DNA from: Candidatus Aenigmatarchaeota archaeon
Lineage (GTDB): Archaea; Aenigmatarchaeota; Aenigmatarchaeia; QMZP01
Assembly (NCBI GenBank): GCA_030670085.1
Contig: DAOVCJ010000002.1
Location: forward strand, 4,975-68,974
DNA: 64,000 nt
Direction of reading: 5' to 3'
Part shown: in pieces, positions 1,278 through 49,447 of the stretch
Numbering within the stretch: the first letter of the stretch is position 1
Layout: every line of letters begins with the position of its first letter
Translations under genes and position numbers: made by a program
Notes under the pieces: model-generated
Database searches by the model: none
Told to the model about the DNA's origin: nothing
What the model saw: the letters and a program-made list of their open reading frames with translations, nothing else

Positions 1278-1307
1278 CCCGACTTGGGTAGACTGAATTA
1301 AGTCGGG
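1278..1307 (+). repeat. Hairpin element copy 1 (CCCGACTT-N14-AAGTCGGG) in the top6B leader
   Basis: Perfect 8-bp stem with a 14-nt loop gggtagactgaatt. The 3' stem runs straight into GGAGG. Confidence 0.8.
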
Positions 1308-1322
1308 AGGCGAAGATTGGAA

Positions 1323-1352
1323 GCCGGCTTGGGGCAATTGAACAAAGCCGGA
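1323..1352 (+). repeat. Hairpin element copy 2 (GCCGGCTT-N14-AAGCCGGa), in tandem 45 nt after copy 1
   Basis: Stem pairs 7 of 8 with a 14-nt loop ggggcaattgaaca. The 3' stem overlaps the GGAGG lying 9 nt before the top6B ATG at 1363. Confidence 0.75.
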
Positions 1353-1362
1353 GGTCGAAGGT

Positions 1363-2955
1363 ATGGAAAAGAGCGCAGAGGAAATGGCGAAAGAGCAGAA
1401 GGAGATTTCGATATCCCAATTTTTCGAGAAGAACCGCCATCTTTTGGGATACGATAACAAGATCAAGGCACTGCTAACTATAGTTAAGGAGGGTGTAGAC
1501 AACGCATTGGACGCAACAGAGGAAGCAGGGATACTTCCAGACATCTACGTCAAGGTTGAGGAGATCGAGAAGGAAAAATACAAGATAGTGATAAAGGATA
1601 ACGGGCCTGGAATAGTCAAGAAGCAGATACCAAACATATTCGGAAAGCTGCTTTACGGAAGCAAGTTTCACAGGCTCAAGCAAAACAGAGGACAGCAGGG
1701 TATTGGAATATCTGGTGGCGTTTTATACTCACAGCTGACAACAGGAAAACCCACCAAGATCATATCCTCAACAGGTGACGGGAAAGACCACAGATTTACC
1801 CTCAAGATAGATGTCAAGCACAATGAGCCAAAGATAGTGGAGAATGAGGTGGTTGAGAGCAAGGAGAAATGGCACGGTGTCCAGATAACCTTTGTTGCAG
1901 AGGGTATTTACAGGGGACACAAGCAATCAGTCATGGAGTACATGAAAGAAGTCGCGATCTCCAATCCCTACGCGAACATAATTTTTGATTCCCCAACAGG
2001 CAGGATAGAATTCGCGAGAGGGGTTGACAAACTCCCTCCCAAGGCAAAGGAGATAAAACCCCATCTTTACGGGATTGAGGTTGGCATACTGGAGAGGATG
2101 AGGAATGAGACCAAGGGCAGGACGGTTCTGACCTTCCTTATGTCAGAGTTCACAAGAGTAGGGAAACTCTCTGCAGAGGAGATATGCAAAAAGGCGGAAA
2201 TAGATTCCAAGATATCTCCCAGGAAGCTCACGCATGATGACGTGGTAAAGATTGTAAACGCAATAAAGGAAGTCAAACTCTCAAGACCGCCAACAGATTG
2301 TCTCTCACCACTAGGCAACACAGCAGTTGAAGAGGGGATGAAGAAGGAACTAAGCCCGGAATTCGTTTCATCGCTTTCAAGGCCCCCGAGTGTTTACAGG
2401 GGCTGGCCGTTCCAGGTTGAGGTCGGGATTGCGTATGGTGGGTTAATAACAGAACCGAATCTCATGAGGTTTGCAAACCGTGTTCCACTGCTTTACCAGT
2501 TAGGTGACTGCGCGATAGCAAAGGCGGTTTCCCAAGTAGACTGGAAGAGATACGGTGTGCCCGGGGACAAGATGCCTGATGCGCCTGTTGTGATATTCGT
2601 TCATTTCGCCTCTGTCTGGGTTCCCTTTACATCAGAATCCAAGGAGGCGATAGCGAACTATCCTGTGATAATAAAGGAGATAAAGCTCGCCCTGCAGGAC
2701 TGTGCAAGAAGACTTGGGTTGTATCTCTCTGGTGTGAGGAGGGCTGAGAGGATAGCTCAGAAGAAACAGATATTTGAAAGGTATGCAATAGACACGGCAA
2801 AGGCACTGGGGGAGCTGACAGGAGAGGCAGAGGAGAAAATCAAGGAAACGATTCTCAAGATTGTTGAAGAGAAATGGAGAGAAATAGTTGCAGAGGAAGG
2901 TGAGGAGAATGAAAAAGAAAACCAAAAAGAAAACAACTCCAAAGGGAAAGGATGA
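1363..2955 (+). CDS. top6B: DNA topoisomerase VI subunit B
   Basis: GHKL/Bergerat ATPase motifs ([11 protein letters not shown], GxxGxG-like GQQGIGISG) and a transducer domain. Length 530 aa, immediately followed by top6A. Confidence 0.9.
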
Positions 2956-6398: not shown

Positions 6399-6403
6399 TA
6401 ATT

Positions 6404-9299: not shown

Positions 9300-10076
9300 T
9301 TAAAACTCGCCTCTTTTGCTGAAGAACTTCTCATATTCCAGCGCAGTTTTTTCATAATCCTGTATAAAATTCTCATAGCTCTTTATCATCTTCTGGTCAG
9401 TGAGTCTTGTGACTGGTTCTGATCTTAGCTTCTCAATCCTGTCCCTGAATTTTTTGATTATGCTTTCGCACATCTTTGTCTCGAATTCATAGATATTTCT
9501 TACAAGTCTGGATTTCCTTTTCCTCCAAGTAGAGATTAGAATCGAGTCTATCTCAGGCTCAGAACCAGGCTCATATGACTTTATCTTGATATCCGTTATG
9601 AGCTTCCTAAGTTTAAGCTTCTCCCTTTTGTTAAGTATCAGTTTTTTCGCTCTCTTCAGAGTAAGGGAATCAAAGTACGCGAAAAGCTCGCTCACTACAT
9701 CGAACCTGGTCATGACATACCAGAGCAGTCCCAGGAAGAAGATATAGTAGTTTATGTAAATGATGGAGTCTATTAGAAATTTCTCTATAAGAATATTGTA
9801 AGACCAAAGAACCAGGGTCATCCCTGATGTTAACACTGTTAGTAAGGCATGAGACACCATATACCCAGAAGACTGAATCACTACGAATTTCTTCATCTTC
9901 TTTTCCATAAACAATGCAACATACCAGCTTATTCCGGAATGCAGAATGTAGAACATTATGAAGTATAAGTAGTATGGGAACCCGAATATGATTGCTACTG
10001 TGAAGCTGAATATCCCCATGCAAAAATAGTAGTAATGGATTATCTGGAAATACTTAACACCAATATAGATGTTCAT
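9300..10076 (-). CDS. Hypothetical membrane protein, paralog A (four TM helices plus a C-terminal coiled soluble domain)
   Basis: 258 aa in a low-GC insert. About 75% amino-acid identity to the adjacent paralog B. Confidence 0.5.
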   Translation of the reverse strand: MNIYIGVKYFQIIHYYYFCMGIFSFTVAIIFGFPYYLYFIMFYILHSGISWYVALFMEKKMKKFVVIQSSGYMVSHALLTVLTSGMTLVLWSYNILIEKFLIDSIIYINYYIFFLGLLWYVMTRFDVVSELFAYFDSLTLKRAKKLILNKREKLKLRKLITDIKIKSYEPGSEPEIDSILISTWRKRKSRLVRNIYEFETKMCESIIKKFRDRIEKLRSEPVTRLTDQKMIKSYENFIQDYEKTALEYEKFFSKRGEF

Positions 10077-10102: not shown

Positions 10103-10876
10103 TCAATAGTTCTTTTTGCTGAAGAACTTTTCATATCCCAGCGCAGTCCTTTCATAATCCTGTATAAACTTTTCATAACTCTTTATCATCTTCTGGTCAG
10201 TGAGGGTCAGATCTGGTTTTGATCTTATTTTCTCAATACTCTCCCTGAATTTCTCGATTATCTTCTCGCACATCTTTGTCTCGAATTCATAGATATTTCT
10301 CTCGATGTTTGACTTTCTTTCCCTCCATGCAGATATCAGAATCGAGTCTATCTCAGGTTCAGAACCAGGTTCATAGGACTCTATTTTGAGATCAGTAATG
10401 AGCTTTCTAAGACCAAGCTCCTCCCTTTTGTTAAGTATCAGTTTTTTCGCTCTCTTCAGAGTAAGGGAATCAAAGTACTCGAAGAGTCCACCCACTAAAT
10501 TGAACTTGGTCATGGTATACCAGAGCAGTCCCAGGAAGAACACGAAGTAGTTTATCTGAATAATAGAGTCTATTAAAAACCTCTCTATAAATACCTGGTA
10601 ATACCACAGAAACAGGGTCAGCCCTGCTGTTAAGAATGTTAATAAAATATGGGACACCATATAGCTATTGGATTGTATCACCACGAATTTCTTCATCTTC
10701 CTTTCCATAAAATATGCGACGTACCAGCTTATTGCAGAATGGATGATGCAGAAGATTATGAAGAATATGGAGTAGGGGAACCCGAATATGATCGCTGCCG
10801 TGAAGCTGAATATCCCCATGCAGAAATAGTAGTAATGAATCATCTGAAAATACTCAACACCAATATAGAGACCCAT
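10103..10876 (-). CDS. Hypothetical membrane protein, paralog B (tandem duplicate of 9300..10076)
   Basis: 257 aa. Long identical DNA runs with paralog A, for example gttaagtatcagttttttcgctctcttcagagtaagggaatcaaagtac. Confidence 0.5.
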   Translation of the reverse strand: MGLYIGVEYFQMIHYYYFCMGIFSFTAAIIFGFPYSIFFIIFCIIHSAISWYVAYFMERKMKKFVVIQSNSYMVSHILLTFLTAGLTLFLWYYQVFIERFLIDSIIQINYFVFFLGLLWYTMTKFNLVGGLFEYFDSLTLKRAKKLILNKREELGLRKLITDLKIESYEPGSEPEIDSILISAWRERKSNIERNIYEFETKMCEKIIEKFRESIEKIRSKPDLTLTDQKMIKSYEKFIQDYERTALGYEKFFSKKNY

Positions 10877-11015: not shown

Positions 11016-11045
11016 GACGGCTTGGACATACTGGGTTAAGCCGTC
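11016..11045 (+). repeat. Hairpin element copy 3 (GACGGCTT-N14-AAGCCGTC) in the leader of the L4 operon
   Basis: Perfect 8-bp stem with a 14-nt loop. Lies 16 nt upstream of the rpl4 ATG and downstream of AT-rich TATA-like sequence around 10953-10983. Confidence 0.8.
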
Positions 11046-11859: not shown

Positions 11860-12177
11860 ATGGCAGAAAAAAAGAAGGAAGTGAAAAGAGAGAAGGAGAA
11901 AGCGACGGAAGCGAAACAGGATCCCTGGAAGGTCCTGATGTATCCCCAGCTTGCAGAGAAATCCATGAACATGGTGGAACTCGAGAACAAGCTGGTTTTC
12001 ATAGTTAATAAGAATGCGAAAAAAGAACAGATAAAGGAAGCTGTCGAAAAACAGTTCAATGTAAGGGTTATCAAGATAAATGTTGAGATAACAAGGAAGG
12101 GTGAGAAGAAGGCCTACGTAAAACTCCATCCGGATGATTCAGCAGCGGACATAGCCTCAAGGATGGGAATGTTATAA
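11860..12177 (+). CDS. rpl23: 50S ribosomal protein L23 (uL23)
   Basis: DPWKVLMYPQLAEKSM...KLVFIVNKNAKKEQIKEAVEKQFNVRV. Confidence 0.9.
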   Translation: MAEKKKEVKREKEKATEAKQDPWKVLMYPQLAEKSMNMVELENKLVFIVNKNAKKEQIKEAVEKQFNVRVIKINVEITRKGEKKAYVKLHPDDSAADIASRMGML

Positions 12178-12193
12178 GCGAAGGTGAAAGAGT

Positions 12194-12862
12194 ATGGGAA
12201 AGAGAATCATACAGCAGAGGAGAGGAAAGGGTTCCCCAACTTACAGGGCACCCCCGTACAAGTTCAGACCCAGCCTTAAGTATAAGAACCAACTTGGAAG
12301 GGTTGTGGATATAGTTAATGATAGGATCAGGAATTCCCCCTTGGCAGAGATTAAGTATTCAGACAGGAGCAAGGGCTACATAATTGCTCCTGAGGGAATA
12401 AGGGTTGGGGATTCGATAGAAAGATTCGTAGTGCTGCTTTCCCGGGTAACAGAGGGGATGCAGATATCAGCAATAGAAACCTCTCCGAATTCAGGACCAA
12501 AGCTTTGCAGGACACCCGGATCATTCGCCACCATGGTATCCAGGGGAAAGAAGGAGTGCATAATCCAGCTCCCCTCCAAGAAAAAGAAAAAGCTGAATCC
12601 GAACTGCAGGGTTATTGTAGGGATTCCTGCAGGAGAGGGGAGAAGGGAGAAGCCGTTTGTGAAGGCAGGAAAGAAGTGGATTGCAATGCATGCGAGAGGA
12701 AAGCTCTACCCCAGAACATCAGGGGTAGCAATGAATGTTGTTGATCACCCGTTCGGTGGTGGTTACAGCGGTCTTGGAAAGCAAAAGACAGTGTCAAGGC
12801 ACACCCCACCAGGAAGGAAGGTGGGTTCGATATCACCAAGGAGAACCGGTAAAAAAAGATAG
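12194..12862 (+). CDS. rpl2: 50S ribosomal protein L2 (uL2)
   Basis: Begins GKRIIQQRRGKGSPTYRAP and carries the L2 C-terminal HPFGGG motif (VDHPFGGG). Confidence 0.9.
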   Translation: MGKRIIQQRRGKGSPTYRAPPYKFRPSLKYKNQLGRVVDIVNDRIRNSPLAEIKYSDRSKGYIIAPEGIRVGDSIERFVVLLSRVTEGMQISAIETSPNSGPKLCRTPGSFATMVSRGKKECIIQLPSKKKKKLNPNCRVIVGIPAGEGRREKPFVKAGKKWIAMHARGKLYPRTSGVAMNVVDHPFGGGYSGLGKQKTVSRHTPPGRKVGSISPRRTGKKR

Positions 12863-12877
12863 GAGAAAAGATTGTAA

Positions 12878-12953
12878 CCCGACTTGGAAAGTTGGATTGA
12901 CGGATTGGTTATATTGGTTCAATCCGTCGAATTGGAGGTTGATAAAAGTCGGG
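12878..12953 (+). repeat. Hairpin element copy 4, a nested variant in the L2-S19 intergenic leader
   Basis: Outer stem is CCCGACTT / AAGTCGGG. It encloses an inner 9-bp hairpin GACGGATTG...CAATCCGTC at 12899-12928. Three ATTGG motifs. The 3' stem abuts AGGAG and the rps19 ATG at 12965. Confidence 0.7.
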
Positions 12954-12964
12954 AGGAGTATGGT

Positions 12965-13345
12965 ATGGCAGAATTCAAGATGAGAGGAAAAGGCATGGAG
13001 GAAATAAAGGGAATGGGTCTGGATGAATTCAGGGATATCATTAGATCCAGGGAAAGAAGGGTCTTGAAGAGGGGACTGACAGAGTACCAGAAAAAACTGC
13101 TCAAGAAGATAAAGAGGGATCCCAAGAAGTTCCACAGAACGAAATGCAGGGACATGGTTATAATACCCGAGATGCTTGGAATAAAAATAGGGGTTTACAA
13201 CGGAAAGGAGTACAGAATATTGGAGATAATACCCGAGATGCTGGGACACAGACTGGGTGAATTCGCATTGACAAGGAAGCATGTTAAACACTCTGCTCCA
13301 GGTTTTGGTGCAACCAAGTCAAGCAAATTCGTTCCATTAAAGTAA
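12965..13345 (+). CDS. rps19: 30S ribosomal protein S19 (uS19)
   Basis: Start placed at the internal ATG MAEFKMRGKGMEE. The upstream part of the track ORF is the hairpin leader. Confidence 0.88.
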   Translation: MAEFKMRGKGMEEIKGMGLDEFRDIIRSRERRVLKRGLTEYQKKLLKKIKRDPKKFHRTKCRDMVIIPEMLGIKIGVYNGKEYRILEIIPEMLGHRLGEFALTRKHVKHSAPGFGATKSSKFVPLK

Positions 13346-13354
13346 GGTGATTAA

Positions 13355-13738
13355 ATGAATAGATATGCATATAATCCGGACCCGAAAAAGTCTGCAAAGG
13401 TATTTGGAAGAGGATCCAGGATATCCCAGAGGTCATCAAATGTAGTGTGCTCCAGGATAAGCGGAATGAGCCTGGACAAGGGCAGGAGTTTCCTGATGAA
13501 CCTTCTGATACAGAAGGAGAGTATTGGTGGCAAATACTACACCAATGTCACAAAGGAACTTCTGAACCTTCTGAGGTCTGCAGAAAGCAATGCAGAGTTC
13601 AAGGGCCTGGACCCTGGAAAACTCATGATCCATGCATCCGCTCACACCGGATTTACATTCTACAGGCCCAGGAACTGGAAGAGGAGAATGGAGAAGAGAA
13701 AGATCACGAACGTACAGCTCGTGCTGGAGGAGAGATGA
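13355..13738 (+). CDS. rpl22: 50S ribosomal protein L22 (uL22)
   Basis: Archaeal L22 pattern and position between S19 and S3. Confidence 0.85.
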   Translation: MNRYAYNPDPKKSAKVFGRGSRISQRSSNVVCSRISGMSLDKGRSFLMNLLIQKESIGGKYYTNVTKELLNLLRSAESNAEFKGLDPGKLMIHASAHTGFTFYRPRNWKRRMEKRKITNVQLVLEER

Positions 13739-13739
13739 T

Positions 13740-14558
13740 ATGTTGAAAGACTACTTCGTAAAGCAGGGGATAAAGGAAGTGGAGATAGAGAAGTTCATAA
13801 GGACACGGTTCCCTTACGGTGATTACTCCAAGACAGAACTTCAGAGAACGCCCCTCGGAATAAAAATCATAATATACACAAACAAGCCCGGAAGGATCAT
13901 AGGCCGCGGGGGTAAAAACATAAATGAGATAACAGAGATGATAAAGAAGAAGTTCGGTTTTGAGAACCCACAGATTGATGTCAAGGCAGTGAGGAATCCC
14001 AACCTTGACCCCAGGATAGTAGCGAAACAGATAGCCTCCGCACTTGAGAGGGGGTACAACTACAAGAAGATAGGAAACCTCTCCATGAAGAGGGTTATGG
14101 AGTCTGGAGCGATAGGAGTGGAGATAATTATATCCGGAAGGCTTGGTGGCGGTGGAGGAAAGAGCATGACAGGAAAATTCATTACCGGTTACCTGAAGCA
14201 CTGCGGGCAACCCGCGAAAGACCTGGTGGATTATGGGTTTGAGGAGGCCAACACAAAGCCCGGGAAGATAGGGATAAAAGTCAGGATAATGAAGGAATTC
14301 ATGGACATATCGGGTGAGATAAGGAAAACCTTGGAACCGGAAGAGGAGATAGAGAAACCGAAGGAAGAGGAGCCCGAAAAGAAGGAGGAAAAGAAACCCG
14401 AGAAAAAACCCACGAAAAAACCCGCAAAGAAACCAAAGAAGACTGAAAAGAAATCCACGAAGAAACCAAAGAAAACAGAAAAACCCAAGAAAGTGAAAAA
14501 ACCGAAGAAGAAAACCACAAAGAAACAAAAGCCCGGAAAGAGGGCAAAAAAGAAGTGA
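13740..14558 (+). CDS. rps3: 30S ribosomal protein S3 (uS3) with a K/P/E-rich C-terminal tail of about 70 aa
   Basis: Start at MLKDYFVKQGIKEVEIEKFI, where ATGA overlaps the L22 stop. Carries a KH domain (IIGRGGKNINEI). The tail is KPEKKPTKKPAKKPKK... Confidence 0.88.
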   Translation: MLKDYFVKQGIKEVEIEKFIRTRFPYGDYSKTELQRTPLGIKIIIYTNKPGRIIGRGGKNINEITEMIKKKFGFENPQIDVKAVRNPNLDPRIVAKQIASALERGYNYKKIGNLSMKRVMESGAIGVEIIISGRLGGGGGKSMTGKFITGYLKHCGQPAKDLVDYGFEEANTKPGKIGIKVRIMKEFMDISGEIRKTLEPEEEIEKPKEEEPEKKEEKKPEKKPTKKPAKKPKKTEKKSTKKPKKTEKPKKVKKPKKKTTKKQKPGKRAKKK

Positions 14559-14607
14559 CGTTTTAGAGATAAATTTAAATATAACCCATAAATAATAAAT
14601 CAAGCTT

Positions 14608-14817
14608 ATGGCTATTCTAAGATCCAAGGATATAAGGAAACTCAGTGAAAAGGAACTGGAAAAAAAGATGGATGAGCTGAGGTTGGAGCTTGCAAAGGAA
14701 AAGGCAAACATATCTATAGGCGCTTCGGTTACTTCTCCAGGCAGAATAAAGGAGATAAGAAAGACCATAGCAAGGATTCTAAGCGTGAAGAAGGAGAAAT
14801 CCAAAGGAGGAAGTTAA
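14608..14817 (+). CDS. rpl29: 50S ribosomal protein L29 (uL29)
   Basis: MAILRSKDIRKLSEKELEKKMDELRLELAKEKA. Confidence 0.85.
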   Translation: MAILRSKDIRKLSEKELEKKMDELRLELAKEKANISIGASVTSPGRIKEIRKTIARILSVKKEKSKGGS

Positions 14818-14821
14818 TATA

Positions 14822-15127
14822 ATGAATAAGATATGTGATAAGTGCGGGTTGCCCGAGTCTCTTTGTGTTTGTGAGACAATAGCAAAGGAAAAGGAAAAAA
14901 TAAGGGTATTGACCATAAGAAGAAGATATGGAAAGGTCATAACCCTGGTTGAGGGTATAGAAAAGGACGCAGACCCCAAATCGGTTCTTAAGGAATTGAA
15001 GACCAAGCTGGCCTGCGGGGGGACTATAAAGGAAAAGACAATAGAGCTGCAGGGCAATCATAAAGAAAGGGTAAAGGATATCCTCGTTAAGCTTGGATTC
15101 CCAGAAGACCAGATTGAGATTACCTAA
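14822..15127 (+). CDS. sui1: Translation initiation factor SUI1/eIF1 (aSUI1)
   Basis: CxxC..CxC at the N-terminus, followed by the SUI1 domain RRRYGKVITLVEG...GGTIKE. Confidence 0.85.
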   Translation: MNKICDKCGLPESLCVCETIAKEKEKIRVLTIRRRYGKVITLVEGIEKDADPKSVLKELKTKLACGGTIKEKTIELQGNHKERVKDILVKLGFPEDQIEIT

Positions 15128-15141
15128 ACCCGCACCGAATC

Positions 15142-15423
15142 ATGATGATAACCCCGGAGAACCTTGTCAGGCACGAGCTGATAGGTTTATCTGTAAAAAT
15201 CATAAAATCCACAGATCCGAGCAATGTAGGAATAGAGGGCAGGGTCGTGGACGAGACCCGAAACACGATAGTTATCGAAACGAAAAAAAGACGAAAAAGT
15301 TTCATAAAGGAAAAATGCGTTTTCTCTTTCCTGCTACCAACCGGGGAGAGAGTAAATGTTGACGGAAGGGTCCTGATTGCAAGACCCGAGGACAGAATAA
15401 AAAAGAAGCTGAAACAGTGGTAA
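15142..15423 (+). CDS. rnp1: RNase P protein component 1 (Rpp29/Pop4)
   Basis: LIGLSVKIIKSTDPSNVGIEGRVVDETRNTIVIE is typical of Rpp29. Conserved position between SUI1 and S17. Confidence 0.7.
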   Translation: MMITPENLVRHELIGLSVKIIKSTDPSNVGIEGRVVDETRNTIVIETKKRRKSFIKEKCVFSFLLPTGERVNVDGRVLIARPEDRIKKKLKQW

Positions 15424-15543
15424 AATAAAGTATTTAAAACCCACCTTTTATATAATTAACAAAGCTGAGTTACCCACTCCTCTGCTGCGGCAGGGGAAAG
15501 GTAGAGAGGCTGCGGTTTCTCTCGGGTAATTCGTCGTGATAGT

Positions 15544-15975
15544 ATGCCTAAGGAAAAATCCAGAAAAAAGACTGAAAGGGGAAGGAAAAAACCCACGGAA
15601 AAGCCCAGTGCGGAGAAGATAGAAAAGAAAGAAGTAAAGAAGAAGGGAGTGAAGACGATAGGACTGGAGATAACCCCCCCTGAGAAAACATGCGAGGATA
15701 TCAGGTGTCCCTGGCACGGGAAGATCTCGATAAGAGGCAGGGCATTCAAAGGCGTGGTAACGTCCGCAAAGGCTCATGCAACAGCGGTTGTTGAGTGGGG
15801 ATACCATCACTACTTCCCGAAGTACGAGAGGTACGAGAGGAGGAAATCCAGGGTGATTGCACACAACCCCCCATGCATACGTGCAAGGGAGGGTGACGAG
15901 GTAATGATCGCGGAGTGCAGACCTCTCTCGAAAACGAAACGCTTCGTGGTGGTAGGGCTACTGAAGAAGGGATGA
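15544..15975 (+). CDS. rps17: 30S ribosomal protein S17 (uS17) with a K-rich N-terminal extension
   Basis: S17 OB core FKGVVTSAKAHATAVVEWGYHHYFPKYERYERR, preceded by a basic extension of about 40 aa. Confidence 0.85.
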   Translation: MPKEKSRKKTERGRKKPTEKPSAEKIEKKEVKKKGVKTIGLEITPPEKTCEDIRCPWHGKISIRGRAFKGVVTSAKAHATAVVEWGYHHYFPKYERYERRKSRVIAHNPPCIRAREGDEVMIAECRPLSKTKRFVVVGLLKKG

Positions 15976-15979
15976 TATT

Positions 15980-16378
15980 ATGAAAGCGATACCAACCAAG
16001 ATCATAAAGGCGTTACCTGTCGGAGCGATAATAACCTGCGCTGACAACACCGGAGCCAAGGAGATCCAGATAATCTCTGTCAAGGGTTTCAAGGGAACCA
16101 GGAGGACCAAGCCCTGTGCAGGTGTTGCGGACTTCGTGACCTGCAGGGTCTACAAGGGAGACGAGAAGGTCAGGCACGAGATTCACAAGGCTGTCATAAT
16201 AAGGCAGAGGAAGGAATACAGGAGGCCAGACGGCATGAGGATAAGCTTTGAGGACAATGCTGCTGTCCTGGTCACTGACAAGGGCGAAGCAAGGGGAAGC
16301 ACCATAAAGGGGCCTGTTGCAAAGGAAGCGGTCCAGAGGTTTTCCACGATAGGTAAGATCGCAAAAATGGTGGTTTGA
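15980..16378 (+). CDS. rpl14: 50S ribosomal protein L14 (uL14)
   Basis: ITCADNTGAKEIQIISVKG...DNAAVLV. Confidence 0.9.
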   Translation: MKAIPTKIIKALPVGAIITCADNTGAKEIQIISVKGFKGTRRTKPCAGVADFVTCRVYKGDEKVRHEIHKAVIIRQRKEYRRPDGMRISFEDNAAVLVTDKGEARGSTIKGPVAKEAVQRFSTIGKIAKMVV

Positions 16379-16882
16379 GTGAAGAAGGATTGGTCAAGGA
16401 ACTGGGTGAAGTCGGTGCAGCCGAGGAAGCAGAGGAAGTACAGACACAACGCTCCATTACATGTAAGGCATAAGTTTTTGTCCGCGAATCTTTCCCCAGA
16501 ACTGAGGAGGAGGTTCGAAAAGAGATCGATGCCGGTCAGGAAGGGAGACGAGGTAGAGGTCATGAGGGGATCTTCCAAGGGATTGAGGGGAACGGTCAAC
16601 AGGGTTGATGTGAAGAAATGCAGGATTTATGTTGAAGAGATCAAGGTGAAAAAAGTTGATGGTTCCGAGATTATGAAGTCACTTCAGCCATCAAATCTCA
16701 GAATAGTAAAACTCAGTCTCGATGACAAGATGAGGCAGAGGGTTTTTGAAAGGACAGAAGAGAAACCGAAGGAAGAAAAGCCCGAAAAAAAGGAGGAAAA
16801 GAAACCCAAAAAGAAAGAAGAAAAAAAGGAGAAGAAAAAGAAAGAAAAGAAAAAGGAAAGGAGAAAGAAGGAGAAAAAGTGA
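16379..16882 (+). CDS. rpl24: 50S ribosomal protein L24 (uL24), GTG start, with a K/E-rich C-terminal tail
   Basis: KOW motif (VRKGDEVEVMRGSSKGLRGTV). The GTG start sits directly after the L14 stop. Tail EKPKEEKPEKKEEKKPKKKEEKK. Confidence 0.8.
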   Translation: MKKDWSRNWVKSVQPRKQRKYRHNAPLHVRHKFLSANLSPELRRRFEKRSMPVRKGDEVEVMRGSSKGLRGTVNRVDVKKCRIYVEEIKVKKVDGSEIMKSLQPSNLRIVKLSLDDKMRQRVFERTEEKPKEEKPEKKEEKKPKKKEEKKEKKKKEKKKERRKKEKK

Positions 16883-16886
16883 TAGC

Positions 16887-17564
16887 ATGCCGCATTTGAA
16901 AAGGTATTCGATGCCGAGATTTTGGCCCCTAGCAAAGAAGGGGAACATTTTCGCAATTAAACCAATGCCCGGGCCGCACCCGAAAGATAATTGCATACCG
17001 CTCCAGGTCATACTCAGGGATGTCCTTAGATACGCTGAAAATGCCAAAGAGGCAAGAAAGGTTCTAAGGGGTGGAAAAATTCTGGTTGACAAAAAGGTGA
17101 GAAAGGATCCCAAATTCCCTGTCGGCCTTATGGATGTTATCGAGATCCCTGAAGCAAAGCAATACTTCAGGATTACTGTCAACACAAGGGGCCTTTTACT
17201 GAAGGATATAACTGAGAAGGATGCGGACAAGAAGCTCTGCAGGATAAACGGGAAGGTCACTGTTAAGGGAGGCCTGTATCAGTTGAATCTGCACGACGGG
17301 AGAAACATACTGGTTAAAGAGGATGTTTACAATGTTGGCGATTCTGTTGTGATTTCAGTACCCGATCAGAAGGTTCTGAAACACTACAAGTTTGGGAAGG
17401 GTGAAAAAGCGATGGTTGTTGCTGGAAGGAACATTGGTGTAAAGGGAAAGATAAGGGACATCCGGGAGAAAAAGAACATGCTGGAAAAAGCGATGGTTGT
17501 ACTTGAAACCAAGGGAGGAGAAATTCAAACCCTGAGGGATTACCTCCTGATAGGCGAGGTATAA
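16887..17564 (+). CDS. rps4e: 30S ribosomal protein S4e (eS4)
   Basis: Start placed at MPHLKRYSMPRFWPLAKKG. The upstream part of the track ORF is the L24 tail read in another frame. Confidence 0.85.
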   Translation: MPHLKRYSMPRFWPLAKKGNIFAIKPMPGPHPKDNCIPLQVILRDVLRYAENAKEARKVLRGGKILVDKKVRKDPKFPVGLMDVIEIPEAKQYFRITVNTRGLLLKDITEKDADKKLCRINGKVTVKGGLYQLNLHDGRNILVKEDVYNVGDSVVISVPDQKVLKHYKFGKGEKAMVVAGRNIGVKGKIRDIREKKNMLEKAMVVLETKGGEIQTLRDYLLIGEV

Positions 17565-17602
17565 GGGGATAAAGTGAAAGCCCGCATCGGAATAACTTGA
17601 GA

Positions 17603-17632
17603 GGCGGCTTAATTCGATTAACTAAAGTCGCC
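17603..17632 (+). repeat. Hairpin element copy 5 (GGCGGCTT-N14-AAGTCGCC) in the S4e-L5 intergenic region
   Basis: 8-bp stem that includes one G.U pair, with a 14-nt loop aattcgattaacta. Nested inside an outer helix CCCGCAT (17581-87) / ATGCGGG (17651-57), which is followed by AGGTGATGAT and the ATG at 17668. Confidence 0.75.
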
Positions 17633-17667
17633 ATGCGATTCGTTGAACAAATGCGGGAGGTGATGAT

Positions 17668-18180
17668 ATGAACAAGATGAGAGAGATAAGGCTTGAGAAA
17701 CTGACCCTGAACATGGGGGCAGGGGAATCCGGTCCCAAGGTAGAGAAATCAAAAACAATAATGGAAAAGATCACAGGGAAAAGGGTTGTGATAACAAAGA
17801 CCCAGAAAAGAACGACATTTGGGATGGCACAGAAAAGAAACATAGGAATCAAGGTAACCCTTAGGGGGAAAGAAGCGAAGGATCTGCTCAAGAGACTTCT
17901 GGAAGCAGTGGAGAACAAACTCAAGCCGTCACAATTCGATTCCAGCGGGAATTTTTCCTTCGGCGTTCATGAGTACATACACATACCCGGGATTAAGTAT
18001 GATCCCGATGTCGGAATACTGGGAATGGATGTATGCGTTACCCTGGAGAGACCCGGCTTCAGGGTCAAGAGAAAAAGCATAAGGCCCGGTAAGGTTGGTA
18101 AAAAACACAGGATAACACCCGCTGAGTCAATGGAGTGGACTAAAAAGGAATTCGGGGTCGAGGTGAAAGAGGAGGAATAG
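17668..18180 (+). CDS. rpl5: 50S ribosomal protein L5 (uL5)
   Basis: Begins [22 protein letters not shown] and carries [15 protein letters not shown]. Confidence 0.9.
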
Positions 18181-18181
18181 T

Positions 18182-18403
18182 ATGTCGTACGAGAGGGTCA
18201 GAAAGCAGATAGAGGGAAAGCCAACCAAGCTTGCAAGATACGAGAAGTTCAACAAGTCCAAAGAGAGGAAGTTCGGAAAAGGAGTTCACAAGTGCAGGAA
18301 GTGCGGAAGGACAGGAGGCCTGATAAGGAAGTATGGTCTGCTGTACTGCAGGCAGTGTTTCAGGGAGGATGCAGAAAAACTCGGGTTTAGGAAATATTCC
18401 TAG
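18182..18403 (+). CDS. rps14: 30S ribosomal protein S14 type Z (uS14, zinc-binding)
   Basis: [25 protein letters not shown]. Confidence 0.85.
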
Positions 18404-18411
18404 GTGATAGA

Positions 18412-18798
18412 ATGAGACATGATTTGCTGGCTGATACATTTTCCATAATAAAGAACACCGAAGAAATAGGAAGGCACGTCTGCGTTACACCAGCCTCCAA
18501 ACTTATAGAGGGGGTTCTGAAGGTGATGCAGAGACACAAGTACATAGGAAATTATGAACTTATAGAAGATGGAAAGGGAGGAAAGTTCAAGGTTTACCTG
18601 CTCGGCAGAATAAATGACTGTGGGGTTTCAAAGCCGAGGTTTTCGATAGGTAGAAGAGATGTTACAAAATGGGAGAAGAAGTTCCTCCCGGCTGACAACA
18701 TAGGGATTCTCATACTGACAACCTCAAAGGGTGTCATGGACCAGAAAGAGGCGACAAAGAAGAATACAGGAGGGAAGCTTCTGGGATATGTTTACTAG
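18412..18798 (+). CDS. rps8: 30S ribosomal protein S8 (uS8)
   Basis: LADTFSIIKNTEEIGRHVCVT...ILILTTSKGVMDQKEA. Confidence 0.9.
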   Translation: MRHDLLADTFSIIKNTEEIGRHVCVTPASKLIEGVLKVMQRHKYIGNYELIEDGKGGKFKVYLLGRINDCGVSKPRFSIGRRDVTKWEKKFLPADNIGILILTTSKGVMDQKEATKKNTGGKLLGYVY

Positions 18799-19080
18799 GT
18801 GGTGCTAATGACTCTGAGCAAACAGATAAAGGATGCGATAAAAAACGAGAAACTAATAATAGGAAGCAGGACAGTACTCAAGAATCTGAAAAACGAAATG
18901 TTGGATTCCGTAGTCTACGCATCCAACTACCCTGGTGGGATGATAAAGGACCTGAATCATTACTCCAAGGTCTCGGGCGTAAAGCTTGAGGAGTTCAATG
19001 GAAATTCAGTCCAGCTAGGGGAACTCTGCGGTAAACCGTTCAGAATCCTGATAGTTGGAGTGAAGAAGGCTAAGAAATAA
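18799..19080 (+). CDS. rpl30e: 50S ribosomal protein L30e
   Basis: GNSVQLGELCGKPFRILIVGV matches the L30e/L7Ae-fold motif GTSVELGTLLGRPF. Sits directly after S8 where L6 normally lies. Confidence 0.8.
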   Translation: MVLMTLSKQIKDAIKNEKLIIGSRTVLKNLKNEMLDSVVYASNYPGGMIKDLNHYSKVSGVKLEEFNGNSVQLGELCGKPFRILIVGVKKAKK

Positions 19081-19143
19081 ATACTAAATGTGCAACAGTA
19101 ACATAAATAAAATCAGAACATAAATATAAACGAAGTTGATAAA

Positions 19144-19548
19144 ATGGCTGTAAAACTCGGGATTGAAAGTATAAGAACAATTGCACTATTCGAGAAGATA
19201 ACGAATGTGCATGCAAGGGACTGTCTGATTACAGAGGACTGTGTTTACTTCCTCGTGAAACCCGAGAAGATAGGTCTGGCCATAGGGAAAAACGGGGCAG
19301 TTATAAAGGGGGTAAGGAAAATCCTGGGAAGGCAGGTTAAGCTTTTCGGGTACTACGACAAACCCGAGGATATGATAAAAAACATGGTACCGAACATAAA
19401 GAACATGACTTTCAACGATGGTAATATGATAATATCAATACCGTCACAGGACAAGGTTGCTGTTATCGGCAAGAACGGAAGGAACATAAAGGCAATAAAA
19501 GAGATCATGAAAAGGCATTTTTCAATAAACTATTTGAAATTAAGGTAG
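19144..19548 (+). CDS. nusA: Archaeal NusA-like protein (two KH domains)
   Basis: Two KH GxxG motifs (AIGKNGAVIKG; VIGKNGRNIKA). Size and its position after L30e are as in archaea. Confidence 0.75.
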   Translation: MAVKLGIESIRTIALFEKITNVHARDCLITEDCVYFLVKPEKIGLAIGKNGAVIKGVRKILGRQVKLFGYYDKPEDMIKNMVPNIKNMTFNDGNMIISIPSQDKVAVIGKNGRNIKAIKEIMKRHFSINYLKLR

Positions 19549-20337
19549 GTGCGTGTTATGAAAATTAAGGTAATCAGGAAGAAGGGTGACGTGTTGACCT
19601 TTCTACTGAAGGATTCAACCCCTGCATTTGCGAATGCTCTCAGGAGGATAATGATATCCGAGGTTCCCACACTAGCGATAAAGTGGGTTGACTTCCATGA
19701 CAATTCCTCTGTCCTCTTCGATGAGATAATTGCACACAGGCTCGGCATGATTCCCTTGAAGTTTGACCCCAGCAAGTTCAACCTACCTGATGAGTGCAGG
19801 TGCGGCGGAAAGGGATGTCCCTTGTGCCAGGTTGTTTTTGCTCTTCAGAAGACAGGTCCTGGAGTGGCTCATTCAAGTGATCTTAAATCCTCAAACAGGT
19901 ATGTTAAACCAACGGATACCAGATTTCCCATTGTCGAGCTCCTCAAGGGACAGAACATAAAGTTTGAGGCCATTGCCCGTTTGAATACAGGGAAGAAGCA
20001 TGCGAAATGGCAGGCAGCAAACGCAAGCTACCAGTACTACCCTGATATAATTTCCGGGGACTGCAAGAATGCGAGCAAGGTTGTCTCCGAGTGCCCGACA
20101 GGAGCCCTGAAACTCAAATACAAAAAGGTTGATTTCAAGGACCCATTACTTTGCAACCTCTGCAAAAAGTGCGAGGAGGTCTGCAGCGGTAATCTGAAAA
20201 TCAGGGGAGACCCCACAAGGTTCTTGTTCAGGGTTGAAACTATATCCGGTCTGGAACCCGCGTACATTGTCCAAAAAGCCGCTGAAATTCTGGAGAAGAA
20301 GGCAGAAGAGTTTAAAAAGAGCGCGGGTAAATTATAA
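19549..20337 (+). CDS. rpoD: DNA-directed RNA polymerase subunit D (Rpo3) with a ferredoxin-like Cys cluster
   Basis: FANALRRIMISEVPTLAI...FDEIIAHRLGMIPL, plus CRCGGKGCPLC...CNLCKKCEEVC. Confidence 0.85.
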   Translation: MRVMKIKVIRKKGDVLTFLLKDSTPAFANALRRIMISEVPTLAIKWVDFHDNSSVLFDEIIAHRLGMIPLKFDPSKFNLPDECRCGGKGCPLCQVVFALQKTGPGVAHSSDLKSSNRYVKPTDTRFPIVELLKGQNIKFEAIARLNTGKKHAKWQAANASYQYYPDIISGDCKNASKVVSECPTGALKLKYKKVDFKDPLLCNLCKKCEEVCSGNLKIRGDPTRFLFRVETISGLEPAYIVQKAAEILEKKAEEFKKSAGKL

Positions 20338-20354: not shown

Positions 20355-20384
20355 CCCGACCTGGATCGATTGCATTAAGTCGGG
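20355..20384 (+). repeat. Hairpin element copy 6 (CCCGACcT-N14-AAGTCGGG) downstream of rpoD
   Basis: Stem pairs 7 of 8 with a 14-nt loop ggatcgattgcatt. Confidence 0.75.
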
Positions 20385-25125: not shown

Positions 25126-25155
25126 GGCGACTTTATTCAATTGCTCCAAGTCACC
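25126..25155 (+). repeat. Hairpin element copy 7 (GGCGACTT-N14-AAGTCaCC)
   Basis: Stem pairs 7 of 8 with a 14-nt loop tattcaattgctcc. Intergenic. Confidence 0.7.
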
Positions 25156-25173: not shown

Positions 25174-25203
25174 GATGGCTTGTTCTGATTGGCCCAAGCC
25201 ATC
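25174..25203 (+). repeat. Hairpin element copy 8 (GATGGCTT-N14-AAGCCATC), in tandem 48 nt after copy 7
   Basis: Perfect 8-bp stem with a 14-nt loop gttctgattggccc. Confidence 0.75.
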
Positions 25204-30480: not shown

Positions 30481-30542
30481 ACCTCCTGGTTCTTTTAAAA
30501 TAAATAAAAACCATTTTACTATACCTAAGTATATAAGCGTAT

Positions 30543-30572
30543 GACGGCTTGACCATATCGGATTAAGCCGTC
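30543..30572 (+). repeat. Hairpin element copy 9 (GACGGCTT-N14-AAGCCGTC) in the tRNA 5' leader
   Basis: Perfect 8-bp stem with a 14-nt loop. Flanked by AAGCGTAT, as is copy 10. The AT-rich stretch ttttactatacctaagtatataag (30514-30537) just upstream may be the promoter. Confidence 0.8.
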
Positions 30573-30584: not shown

Positions 30585-30788
30585 GCGGGGGTACCCAAGC
30601 GGTCAAAGCGTATGACGGCTTAAACAGATTGGATAAAGCCGTCTGTGACTAAAGGGGCTAGCCTAAGGAGCTAGTGGCTTAGAACCCTTTTCGTTCCAAA
30701 CACACAAAAGCGTTCGTGGAAAAGAAAGGGTGAGTAATGCCTTCCTGGGTTCGAACCTCGAAAACGAGCGAAAATCCCAGCCCCCGCA
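30585..30788 (+). tRNA. Putative class-II (Leu/Ser-like) tRNA gene with multiple non-canonical introns; anticodon unresolved
   Basis: 7 of 7 acceptor pairing GCGGGGG (30585-91) / CCCCCGC (30781-87) plus discriminator A. D-arm TACCCAAGCGGTCAAAG. T-arm CTGGG-TTCGAAC-[19-nt insert with CTCGaaaaCGAG]-CCCAG. Hairpin copy 10 (30614-30643) interrupts the D region. The 204 nt minus about 120 nt of inserts gives the size of a class-II tRNA. Candidate anticodon loops are CTTAGAA (UAG) at 30678-84 or CTAAGGA at 30663-69. Confidence 0.55.
30614..30643 (+). repeat. Hairpin element copy 10 (GACGGCTT-N14-AAGCCGTC) inside the putative tRNA (intron-like)
   Basis: Same flanks as copy 9, which lies 71 nt upstream. 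Loop aaacagattggata. Confidence 0.75.
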
Positions 30789-33932: not shown

Positions 33933-34033
33933 TTTAATCCTTTACCCTTTCTTTTTATTTTTGTTTTGTTAGTTCTTTTTCTAGCTGAATCGAGATAATC
34001 AGAATAAAAGCGCTGGGAGAGGGAAATTCGAGG

Positions 34034-34063
34034 GACGACTTTTTTCAATATACCCAAGTCGTC
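34034..34063 (+). repeat. Hairpin element copy 11 (GACGACTT-N14-AAGTCGTC) downstream of tuf
   Basis: Perfect 8-bp stem with a 14-nt loop ttttcaatataccc, followed by CATGCG as in copy 5. Confidence 0.8.
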
Positions 34064-34227
34064 ATGCGCTTTTCGAACCCCCATGCCCATACGGGCACAC
34101 GCTATTTATTCCCGTTTTTGCTCACCCGCTTTTTGTGAAAGCGGCGAGCTCCTGTAAAAAGCGGGTCTCCAAGCGTGCTCCTTAACCATTCGGACATCCC
34201 AGCACAATCAAGCCCTTATCGCTGTAA

Positions 34228-45297: not shown

Positions 45298-45401
45298 ACT
45301 TAATTATTTGCATTCGGACCTTTATTTAATTTTCAGTGGCCGTTTTCAGACCCCTTCGGGAGAATGCATTTAAAACAATTTGCCAACAATAATATTATTA
45401 T

Positions 45402-47882: not shown

Positions 47883-47902
47883 GCTCTAAAACAGGAACTC
47901 GT

Positions 47903-48280
47903 TCATATAGTCTTTTTGAGATGCTTGATTTTTATCTCGATCTCTGTGAGCTTCTGCTCGTAATCCTGGGTTATCTTCTCGTAGTTTTCCCTAGATATCT
48001 TCTTTTTCAAGAACTTCTTTTCTAACGCGTCTTTTATTTCCTCTATCTCCTTTCTTTTCATTTCCAGGTCATCAACCACGTGCCTCCCAAGCCTCTCCAT
48101 GCCCCTGAAAACTACAAGAAAAGCGATAGCCAGACCAACGTAAAGGACAACGTATCCAAGAACCGCGAGAACCCCTATGATGGGGGTGAACCAGAATGCA
48201 AGGGCGAATATTATGCCTGACATGATGAATGTAACTGCCCAGAGCAACTGCAGCCTGTCCTCTCGTTTGAATACTGGCAT
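47903..48280 (-). CDS. Small membrane protein with a C-terminal coiled-coil segment
   Basis: Two TM helices followed by a K/E-rich helix. Confidence 0.3.
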   Translation of the reverse strand: MPVFKREDRLQLLWAVTFIMSGIIFALAFWFTPIIGVLAVLGYVVLYVGLAIAFLVVFRGMERLGRHVVDDLEMKRKEIEEIKDALEKKFLKKKISRENYEKITQDYEQKLTEIEIKIKHLKKTI

Positions 48281-48364
48281 ATTAATTAATTGTATTCTAG
48301 GAATAAAAACCTAAAATCTGCTAAATCTTATTAAACTTAAATTTATACTTTCTAAATATTCTCC

Positions 48365-49447
48365 ATGTCAAATAAGGGAGACGACTTGGACAGATTGGAC
48401 AAGGTCGTCCAACCAAAAGAATCGAATGACGACTTGGTCAAATCAGATAAAGTCGTTCAACCAAAGGAATGGCCTGTTGCAGAGGGAAGGTACAAAGTGG
48501 GAAATAAGGATTCCCCGATTGCAGTGTGTACAATGGCATCTGTTGAGATGAATATGCCCATGGACAAGATCGCAATCATTGGAAAATGTGTGACCGAGAA
48601 CTTAGGGGTAGAGAAGATAATAAAGAACACGATATCAAACCCGAAAATAAGATACTTGATATTCTGCGGCAAGGAATCGCACGGACATTTCGTGGGCCAG
48701 GCTATGAAGTCCCTGAAGGAAAACGGAGTAGACGGGGAGAAGAGAATCATCGGAGCAAAGGGAGGCATGCCTGTTCTAAAGAACCTTGAGATGGAGGAGA
48801 TAGAGAGGTTCAGGGAACAGGTAGAACCGATTGATATGGCAGACGAGACAGACACTGCAAAGATACTGGCAAAGGTTAATGAGCTGTTTGAAAGGAACCC
48901 AGGGCCATTCGAAGGAGGGAGTATGGAGACAGAAGAAGAGGTAAGGGAGACCAGGGCAGAGTTCCACCCTATCGCCGAATGGATGAAGGATCCAGAGGGC
49001 TTTTTCACAATATACCCAAATGCGGAGAGAGAGGAGATAGTTGCTGAACACCACGACAACGAAGGCAAGATGAAGAGCAGAATCTTTGGGAAATCAGCAG
49101 AAGACATATACCACCATATAATAAAAAACAACCTGGTTTCCAGGTATGACCACGCAGCCTACTTGGGAAGGGAGCTTGCAAAAGCAGAGCTTGCGATGAG
49201 AAACCAGCTGGACTATGAACAGGACGCTGATTTAAAAACCATGAAACAGAATAATGAACAAACAGAGCCAACGGTTCCCAGAGAGCCGGAAATTTCCAGA
49301 CCACTTCCCCCAAAACCAAAAAAACCGAAAGGTAGGTTTCTCACCTACATCAAGGGGGGAAGGGAGATCGCAGTGGAGGACTTTACAAGACAGGACAATG
49401 AATTCAGGGCTCTTCTCAGGGAAAGAGGAATGTCAAGAATATTTTAG
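48365..49447 (+). CDS. MtrA-like protein (tetrahydromethanopterin S-methyltransferase subunit A family homolog) with an extra C-terminal domain
   Basis: WPVAEGRYKVGN...IAVCT...IIGKCVTENLGVEKII...SNPKIRYLIFCGKESHGHFVGQA...ENGVDGEKRIIGAKGGMPVLKNLEMEEIERF follows the MtrA pattern (WP..GEY.VG..VAV.T..G.C.TEN.GIEK..SNP.IRYLI..G.E..GH..G). The N-terminal 32 aa are two in-frame hairpin elements. Confidence 0.55.
   Translation: MSNKGDDLDRLDKVVQPKESNDDLVKSDKVVQPKEWPVAEGRYKVGNKDSPIAVCTMASVEMNMPMDKIAIIGKCVTENLGVEKIIKNTISNPKIRYLIFCGKESHGHFVGQAMKSLKENGVDGEKRIIGAKGGMPVLKNLEMEEIERFREQVEPIDMADETDTAKILAKVNELFERNPGPFEGGSMETEEEVRETRAEFHPIAEWMKDPEGFFTIYPNAEREEIVAEHHDNEGKMKSRIFGKSAEDIYHHIIKNNLVSRYDHAAYLGRELAKAELAMRNQLDYEQDADLKTMKQNNEQTEPTVPREPEISRPLPPKPKKPKGRFLTYIKGGREIAVEDFTRQDNEFRALLRERGMSRIF
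48380..48409 (+). repeat. Hairpin element copy 12 (GACGACTT-N14-AgGTCGTC) inside the N-terminal coding region of the MtrA-like gene
   Basis: 8-bp stem including one U.G pair, with a 14-nt loop ggacagattggaca. Encodes DDLDRLDKVV. Confidence 0.7.
48428..48457 (+). repeat. Hairpin element copy 13 (GACGACTT-N14-AAGTCGTt), in tandem 48 nt (16 codons) after copy 12
   Basis: 14-nt loop ggtcaaatcagata. Encodes DDLVKSDKVV. Confidence 0.7.

Follow-up and report, generated by a model that had tools for sequence, protein, structure and literature searches.

The question raised by this stretch of DNA is what the short hairpins are that recur through it, and how they came to stand in front of genes, inside tRNA genes and inside a protein-coding gene alike. 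The stretch, called the window in what follows, comprises 64,000 nt of contig DAOVCJ010000002.1 (assembly GCA_030670085.1, Candidatus Aenigmatarchaeota archaeon; positions 4,975 to 68,974 of the forward strand). An initial annotation, made from the letters alone, had described a dense family of ~30-nt hairpins and had likened them to repetitive extragenic palindromic (REP) elements or miniature mobile hairpins, or else to a conserved leader RNA. Our reading, to which we give a probability of roughly two in three, is that the hairpins belong to a mobile, non-autonomous palindromic repeat that occurs in Aenigmatarchaeota and in related DPANN archaea. Changes at the DNA level during the divergence of strains and species include gain and loss of copies, tandem duplication, nesting and exchange. 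The novelty is a palindromic cassette, DPANN-wide, that is common to bulge-helix-bulge (BHB) introns of tRNA genes, untranslated regions (UTRs) and a coding sequence, with empty and filled states among close relatives. The tRNA introns and leader and the in-frame coding copies, like the conserved flanking nucleotides described below (G at -4, AAT, C at +4, A at +6/+7), go beyond the earlier account.

The dense family that had been announced is real. The window contains eight exact matches to the pattern CGNCTT-N14-AAGNCG, where shuffles that preserve dinucleotides lead one to expect 0.02. A covariance model, R1, was built from the 13 oriented copies and searched against all 64 kb with its filters switched off; it recovers those 13 copies and no others at 38-50 bits, and the runner-up scores 10 bits. 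Extended to relatives, this search, which the initial annotation had proposed, gave archaeal matches of mostly 30-50 bits. Looser pattern scans and direct reading also recovered the earlier list of copies. Each of the 13 intact copies, which lie within 48 kb, has an 8-bp stem and a 14-nt loop (13/13), essentially as first described, and one further copy is interrupted. Twelve of the 13 coordinates given at first were right; the one at 12878 was out of register, the intact copy being at 12899. At 12878 the sequence CCCGACTT has no partner 14 nt away. It (12878-12885) pairs with AAGTCGGG (12946-12953) as an outer, interrupted copy, in which an intact copy with the variant stem GACGGATT-N14-AATCCGTC (C6-G replaced by A-T) is nested at 12899-12928. 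The nested fold of this composite has -30 kcal/mol and z = -3.7 (RNAfold). Rfam 15 gave no match at the gathering threshold anywhere in the 64-kb window, and literature searches found no published description of the hairpin family.

The RNA-style covariation with G.U pairs that had been claimed also holds. Over the 13 window copies, 97% of the stem cells are paired (97-98% overall), and five of the eight stem pairs change on both sides in a compensatory manner. The covariation score was reached by none of 500 shuffles, controls with a slid register pair at 15-47%, and the pairing result was repeated on 23 copies that had not been chosen by any stem pattern. On the sense strand, G.U pairs outnumber A.C pairs by 10 to 3 (alignment and pair counts). 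Every copy has A at loop position 7, and ATTG predominates at positions 7-10. The 5' flank has G at -4 in 37/38 copies and AAT at -3 to -1, and the 3' flank C at +4 in 30/38 copies and A at +6/+7. The core of the element can thus be written G-AAT, 8-bp stem, 14-nt loop, 8-bp stem, NNT-C-N-AAA; it is often followed by an A-rich arm, CAWCCAAAsGAATCGAA, which makes up a unit of 45-48 nt.

Copies at the same site come and go between close relatives. The spacer between the KsgA and TopoVI-B genes holds two copies in the window, one in the related locus L108 and none in L109, L110 and L107: copy 1278 is present in L108 and absent from the other three, and copy 1323 is absent from all four. L108 and L109 encode an identical TopoVI-B protein and have different copy numbers. 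Upstream of the L4 gene the window has one copy, flanked on both sides by a duplicated GAGTGAT, and L108 and L107 have none. A metagenome scan with S4e yielded two short loci only, and these provided the first empty and filled sites: the S4e-L5 spacer has one copy in the window (119 nt) and none in L105 (~35 nt), and the spacer at window 15127/15142 has none in the window and one in L105. Upstream of S13, L108 and L109 have a decayed copy, and the window and L107 have none; the OB-fold gene is preceded by two copies in the window, one in L133 and none in L135. Over the same 16-21 kb, the window has six copies, L108 two, and L107 and L110 none. Presence or absence differs in this way between strains whose proteins are 86-100% identical. 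Three of the polymorphic sites lie between a Shine-Dalgarno-like GTGAT motif and the start codon, a stretch that is nearly the only non-coding DNA in these compact genomes. That close relatives lack copies at these sites contradicts the reading as a conserved leader RNA, which the initial annotation had offered, or as a conserved operator.

The same hairpin was mapped to tRNA genes. ARAGORN, run with and without introns, reported no tRNA in the 64 kb, though at least two are present; once the introns had been removed by hand, it called tRNA-Ser(GGA) and tRNA-Leu(AAG). An archaeal BHB intron has two 3-nt bulges, with a 4-bp helix between them, at the exon-intron borders, and its excision leaves a working RNA. 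In the D-loop intron of tRNA-Leu, the helix is GTCA/TGAC and the bulges are AAG and TAA; in the T-loop intron of tRNA-Ser, the helix is TTCG/CGAA and the bulges are AAA and TTT, and cleavage would yield the mature T-loop TTCGAAT. Two window copies lie in these BHB introns, and a third in the leader of tRNA-Leu. The cassette was also found in T-loop 59/60 introns of tRNA-Ala (L078) and tRNA-Val (L075), from another DPANN metagenome-assembled genome (MAG), and ARAGORN recognises the spliced forms. Position 59/60 was already known to hold an intron in tRNA-Cys of ARMAN-2, a DPANN archaeon (PMC5829648). A BHB is formed only around the tRNA-embedded copies, and there by the flanks, not by the hairpin: a scan around every copy found no BHB at a consistent offset at 10 non-intron copies, and many spurious 4-bp helices.

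The tRNA introns, too, are found in different states among relatives. In the T-loop intron of tRNA-Leu, L134 and L135 have the cassette and the window lacks it; the D-loop intron holds it in the window, has a decayed form in L134 and is absent from L135. The T-loop intron of tRNA-Ser has the cassette in both the window and L134, with a compensatory stem change from A-T to G-C. Between these two, the hairpin loop is identical at 6/14 positions only, against ~92% (a by-eye estimate) for the rest of the intron, and this suggests that the hairpin may have been replaced as a cassette. A different hairpin occupies the tRNA-Ser T-loop intron in L133. The site of copy 30543, in the tRNA-Leu leader, holds no full copy in L134 or L135, where 22-25 nt separate the TATA box from the 5' end of the tRNA.

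Further observations concern tRNA-Leu. Its anticodon AAG (loop CTAAGGA) is unusual for an archaeon, the orthologue in L135 having GAG. In the L134 orthologue (L134:10838-11182, minus strand), the leader ends right before the tRNA in GATGGCTT, the 5' half of a hairpin, whose counterpart GCCATC is found in the D-loop intron. The leader could therefore pair with the intron, bridging the 5' part of the tRNA. In the window, the hairpin of the leader and that of the intron are identical in their stems, and RNAfold likewise pairs the one with the other.

Other copies were mapped inside a coding sequence. In the MtrA-like gene (48365-49447), the N-terminus consists of two units translated as GDDLDRLDKVVQPKE and SNDDLVKSDKVVQPKE. 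Each 48-nt unit is 16 codons long, and a hairpin reading GAC GAC TTG GAC AGA TTG GAC AAG GTC GTC encodes DDLDRLDKVV. The Pfam MtrA match begins at residue 33, and there is no in-frame start codon after the hairpins. The orthologue in L136 has one unit at the matching N-terminal site (R1 38.7 bits). In the more distant L137, the N-terminus has no unit, and two tandem in-frame units are found in the inter-domain linker. Occurrence both between genes and in frame in coding sequence, a trait of Rickettsia palindromic elements (RPEs) and of the MJRE repeats, is therefore present here, the in-frame copies examined coming from one gene family only.

Each of the 13 copies in the window points in the direction of local transcription, whichever the strand. 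Eight of them lie 10-45 nt upstream of start codons, namely those of TopoVI-B (two copies), L4, S19, L5, a 64-amino-acid open reading frame (ORF) and the OB-fold gene (two copies). The 3' end of copy 1323 forms GGAGGT, a Shine-Dalgarno-like sequence, and members of the CCCGACTT subfamily have GGGAGG(TGA) at the 3' junction, a strong site of this type that the stem partly hides. Translation may therefore be affected by single copies, though not by the family as a whole. Co-orientation has one clear exception only, a tandem hairpin pair just downstream of the splicing endonuclease gene in L079, which runs opposite to the flanking genes. That endonuclease (L079:129-1355; 408 amino acids, with the N- and C-terminal Pfam tRNA_int_endo domains) far exceeds an alpha subunit in length and may be of the multi-unit type. 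As a separate observation, copy 17603 sits inside a larger inverted repeat, CCCGCAT...ATGCGGG (17582-17660), with GTGA on both sides; this looks like an ~85-nt element of the MITE kind (miniature transposable elements with inverted repeats), with terminal inverted repeats and a 4-nt duplication.

A mobile element of this kind might work as follows. A trans-acting mobilising activity would recognise the hairpin as single-stranded DNA or RNA, and a hairpin that serves as the recognition feature would explain why the stems are kept while the loops drift. Copies would survive only where an insert of 30-48 nt is harmless, as in 5' UTRs and intercistronic spacers by the ribosome-binding site, a tRNA leader, BHB introns, from which they would be removed by the splicing endonuclease, and, in frame, flexible protein segments. 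Given their constant sense orientation, the copies are transcribed and should fold as stable RNA hairpins. The orientation could be imposed by the mechanism of mobilisation or by selection: antisense T-runs could terminate archaeal transcription, and the antisense strand encodes a different peptide. Such runs (4-6 T) are found in 4/13 window copies, and their avoidance is a weak explanation of the sense orientation. Effects on the host, on mRNA stability or on translation via the Shine-Dalgarno-like GGGAGG, would be secondary and specific to a copy.

We also propose, tentatively and with the odds rather against it, that the hairpin cassette seeds non-canonical tRNA introns. The T-loop has the sequence TTCGAA, and the CGAA of the A-rich arm, which ends in TCGAA, pairs with TTCG to give the BHB helix. 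A cassette that inserts beside a sequence resembling TCGAA, and whose own 3' arm contains ...TCGAA, would, on landing after the T-loop TTCGAA (59/60), create the 4-bp TTCG/CGAA helix along with the two bulges of a BHB. A splicing endonuclease of broad specificity would then remove the cassette and the tRNA would survive; the cassette could also spread as excised intron RNA. If this is true, the empty, filled, decayed and swapped states are snapshots of intron insertion.

Several findings weigh against mobility. Direct repeats of 4-7 nt flank some copies (GCGA at 1278, TTGGA at 12899 and GAGTGAT at 11016, besides the repeat listed in Table 1), but their length and offset vary, and they define no clean target-site duplication. 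No transposase, RAYT/TnpA or TnpB, Y1 HuH, integrase or reverse transcriptase gene was seen among those genes of the window that were checked by Pfam or by reading the translations, or in ~300 kb of related loci, checked through their Pfam gene tables; within this range, the search for a TnpA or RAYT-like gene that the initial annotation had recommended came back empty. In other MAGs, the genes that adjoin the repeats are housekeeping genes (FtsY, GGGP synthase, ATCase, EndA and CCA-adding enzyme) and likewise include no transposase. As no enzyme was seen, mobility is deduced from the polymorphism only. The loops of copies within one genome are 40-60% identical and not near-identical, unlike those of a recently bursting MITE. 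The N-terminal copy of the MtrA-like gene has been kept at one site in orthologues of ~59-86% identity, and some copies are therefore old and possibly selected. The strict sense orientation, the conserved G at -4 and C at +4 and the loop A7 also fit an RNA function, and the counts of orientation and location come from part of one genome.

Among the other explanations, an unlikely one that keeps the mobility is that these are REP or IS200/IS605-type single-stranded DNA hairpins that insert 3' of a short target such as TCGAA, moved by a HuH (Y1) transposase (RAYT/TnpA) whose gene lies in another part of the genome. Insertion sequences of the IS200/IS605 type insert 3' of a fixed 4-5-nt target without duplication, have sub-terminal hairpins and encode TnpA/TnpB. 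A hairpin with a conserved short flank is what this would predict, and the flank patterns are no more than suggestive. Many copies either begin 1 nt after TCGAA, as do those at 25126, 25174, 48428 and in L133, or have a 5' flank AGCGYAT and a 3' flank nnTCGAA. CGAA occurs within 12 nt on the 5' side of 11/38 copies and within 14 nt on the 3' side of 10/38, against 3 and 4 for its reverse complement TTCG, so that TCGAA/CGAA is enriched in both flanks without being universal. Because the arm itself ends in TCGAA, a second copy can land behind the first, which fits the tandem pairs: all four are in the same orientation, and there are no inverted doublets. Insertion after the T-loop TTCGAA would be explained in the same way. 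However, no Y1 transposase gene was present in any of the loci examined and there is no GTAG-like invariant head. Orientation tracks transcription on both strands within a few kb and not the direction of replication, and direct repeats, which HuH transposition does not make, are found at several sites.

We consider it quite improbable that the hairpin is a cis-acting RNA element (a binding site for a protein or processing enzyme, a 5' stabiliser or a translational operator) selected in the leaders of information-processing genes, such as those of ribosomal proteins, TopoVI and tRNAs. It would account for copies that are always in sense at 10-45 nt from start codons, for the compensatory stem changes and G.U excess on the sense strand, for the conservation of G-4, C+4 and loop A7/ATTG across distant genomes, and for the half-buried GGGAGG at the 3' junction of the CCCGACTT subfamily. 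Yet the element is missing at the same genes in relatives of 86-95% protein identity, and its number upstream of a single gene may be 0, 1 or 2. A leader function makes no sense for copies in tRNA introns and in a coding sequence, copy 30543 is likely upstream of the transcription start, and no consistent kink-turn (K-turn), pseudoknot or BHB surrounds the mRNA copies.

Specific candidate structures were tried and rejected. A K-turn has a 3-nt bulge followed by tandem sheared G.A/A.G pairs. As a K-turn or K-loop site for L7Ae (a 3x3 internal loop and the 14-nt loop), the hairpin lacks conservation of the required G.A pairs: stem positions 1-2 (GA) are Watson-Crick paired and loop position 6 is not a conserved G. 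A pseudoknot between loop and 3' flank is good for copy 11016 only, the other copies showing no covariation for it. A promoter element does not suit the variable spacing from TATA-like boxes. A CRISPR array was rejected as well, the copies being dispersed or at most paired, with differing stems, and the 15-41-nt spacers being homologous arms.

Similarly doubtful is a spread through RNA, in which the hairpins are mobile BHB-intron cassettes and an excised circular tRNA intron (AGCGYAT-hairpin-YYT-CGAA) is re-inserted into other transcripts or copied back into DNA. The sense orientation of 13/13 window copies and the link to highly transcribed genes would follow from it. Copies outside tRNA genes share the arms of the intron copies (5' AGCGTAT/GCGCAT/GCAT, 3' nnTCGAA), CGAA exceeds TTCG in the flanks as counted above, and the arm CGAA and T-loop TTCG form the central BHB helix; transposition of introns has also been proposed for Thermoproteales (PMC4033280). 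Set against this are the lack of any reverse transcriptase in the window or related loci, the mRNA and UTR copies without a BHB, and copy 30543, which lies between TATA box and tRNA start and may not be fully transcribed. Events at the DNA level explain the tandem duplication and nesting equally well. Finally, a palindromic operator to which a dimeric DNA-binding protein attaches, suggested by the near two-fold symmetry with a CAATTG-like core, is barely credible: as the initial annotation had rightly argued against a simple protein-binding palindrome, the half-sites vary yet stay complementary, G.U and A.C pairs are asymmetric, and copies occur in tRNA introns and a coding sequence and vary in presence between strains.

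The family recurs in several genomes of Aenigmatarchaeota and related DPANN archaea. The window encodes topoisomerase VI A and B, S4e, S6e, EF-1alpha and RpoD and is archaeal, so that the bacterial setting of REP/RAYT elements invoked at first does not apply. Its closest homologues are named Candidatus Aenigmatarchaeota by NCBI and include the complete 1.05-Mb genome CP070801.1. The pattern ATGACGGCTT-N14-AAGCCGTC, scanned once over 185,579 species genomes, gave repeated matches in at least four Aenigmatarchaeota MAGs, several other archaeal MAGs and a 'Nanoarchaeota' MAG. The archaeal matches keep the loop core and the flanks. Bacterial matches are mostly single and, at 13-22 bits, due to chance, with two exceptions at ~31-34 bits. 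One strong match of this kind, in L018 (DATCTP010000385.1, labelled an Anaerolineales MAG; 1217-1252, 33.5 bits with R1), lies in locally low-GC sequence, and the contig may be misbinned archaeal DNA rather than a bacterial copy. A viral origin was considered and rejected: none of the 21 exact stem matches in IMG/VR fits R1, and they are therefore put down to chance.

A second hairpin family, GAAGGCGNC-AAGA-GNCGCCTTC, with a 9-10-bp stem and a 4-nt loop, was observed in the Aenigmatarchaeota MAG OBJ_0618, and the 30-nt hairpin is sometimes nested in its loop (L008, L052). The positions of both families and of the tRNA genes are listed in Table 1.

Table 1. Positions of hairpin copies and tRNA genes in the window, and of the second hairpin family in a related genome
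Feature	Position	Strand	R1 score	Remarks
Hairpin CCCGACTT/AAGTCGGG, KsgA-TopoVI-B spacer	1278..1307	+	45.4 bits	first of tandem pair
Hairpin GCCGGCTT/AAGCCGGA	1323..1352	+	42.1 bits	10 nt upstream of TopoVI-B ATG
Hairpin upstream of ribosomal protein L4 gene	11016..11045	+	46.6 bits	
Composite between L2 and S19 genes	12878..12953	+		outer interrupted copy and nested intact copy
Hairpin, S4e-L5 spacer	17603..17632	+	38.6 bits	
Hairpin between RpoD gene and 64-amino-acid ORF	20355..20384	+		flanked by ACGA direct repeats
Hairpin upstream of OB-fold gene (24416-25082, minus)	25126..25155	-	48.6 bits	proximal of tandem pair
Hairpin upstream of OB-fold gene	25174..25203	-		distal of pair; 5' flank TTTCGAAC
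Hairpin in tRNA-Leu leader	30543..30572	+		between TATA box (30530-30537) and tRNA-Leu 5' end (30585)
tRNA-Leu(AAG)	30585..30788	+		three BHB introns; read from sequence
tRNA-Leu D-loop intron	30608-30651	+		holds hairpin 30614-30643
tRNA-Leu variable-loop intron	~30683-30737	+		
tRNA-Leu T-loop 59/60 intron	~30756-30773	+		
tRNA-Ser(GGA)	34011..34203	-		canonical intron 34104-34166; T-loop 59/60 BHB intron 34025-34071 with hairpin 34034-34063
Two tandem 48-nt units in MtrA-like gene	48380..48457	+		hairpins 48380-48409 and 48428-48457; arms CAACCAAAAGAATCGAAT / CAACCAAAGGAA
Second hairpin family (OBJ_0618)	L052:2540-2700, L052:201-240, L008:1880-1960			

Some features of the window lie apart from the hairpins. 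Purine loading of the coding strand is very strong (e.g. in 12001-20000), with an AT skew of up to +0.33 and a GC skew of +0.24. Several proteins have long Lys/Glu-rich tails, including S3, S6e, the topoisomerase C-terminus and the ORF upstream of S4e. Two tandem paralogues of ~258 amino acids with N-terminal membrane segments (9300-10076 and 10103-10876, both minus) lie between the S13 operon and L4; they have no Pfam match, and L107 has one copy only. An S-layer-like ORF (55060-56121) has a faint N-terminal LAGLIDADG match (E = 0.008), which is probably noise.

How archaeal tRNAs gained introns at non-canonical positions is an open question, and the cassette makes their origin directly testable. 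One cassette of 30-48 nt occurs in three tRNA settings (T-loop intron, D-loop intron and leader), in spacers and in a protein gene, and R1 provides a searchable marker for intron gain, loss and exchange in natural DPANN populations. A 2014 review considered that transposable elements may be involved in tRNA intron gain and that snapshots of insertion are needed (PMC4033280). There are also practical consequences: standard tRNA finders miss such intron-bearing genes, and in DPANN MAGs the calling of start codons and genes can be displaced by the repeats, the N-terminal 16-residue units being an example.

Several known systems resemble the family in part. REPs carry a conserved GTAG head, lie outside genes (usually on their 3' side), occur as inverted doublets and are associated with a RAYT gene. 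The earlier proposal of a REP-like or miniature mobile hairpin named the right kind of element, a short imperfect multi-copy palindrome, but not the REP/RAYT family: the flank here is GAAT with only G-4 invariant and no GTAG head, copies are not strictly extragenic, pairs are direct and not inverted, and no RAYT/TnpA gene was seen. The likeness to REPs and REPINs (PMC3116915) extends to an imperfect palindrome of 20-40 nt, high copy number, compensatory stem changes, co-transcription with neighbouring genes and polymorphism between strains. The MITEs of archaea, such as SM1-SM4 of Sulfolobus (PMC10969869), are likewise non-autonomous and multi-copy, but they measure 80-350 bp and have terminal inverted repeats that match a parent insertion sequence and a target duplication of fixed length, whereas we find one small hairpin, whose stem could count as terminal inverted repeats. 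Transposed non-canonical BHB introns are recorded for Thermoproteales tRNAs (Fujishima et al. 2010, as summarised in PMC4033280). With these and the ARMAN-2 introns our cassette shares the recurrence of related short introns at other positions and in other tRNAs, the T-loop 59/60 site and a splicing endonuclease of broad specificity; it differs from the Thermoproteales introns in occurring outside tRNAs as well and in having empty and filled states among close relatives.

Closest in behaviour are the RPEs and the MJRE repeats of Methanocaldococcus jannaschii. MJRE1-3, palindromic repeats reportedly described by Suyama, Lathe and Bork in FEBS Lett in 2005, are archaeal and short, with many diverged copies that are mostly extragenic and, in a few cases, intragenic and in frame. 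They belong to another phylum and are likened to our family by behaviour, not by sequence, and to our knowledge none has been reported in a tRNA intron. RPEs are, like the hairpins of the window, lineage-specific palindromes found between genes and in frame within unrelated genes, where they add a conserved hydrophilic peptide, and no transposase is known for them (PMC10969869). They are bacterial and ~100-150 bp long, whereas the present repeat is archaeal, measures 30-48 nt, has its coding copies so far in one gene family and resides in the BHB introns of tRNAs as well.

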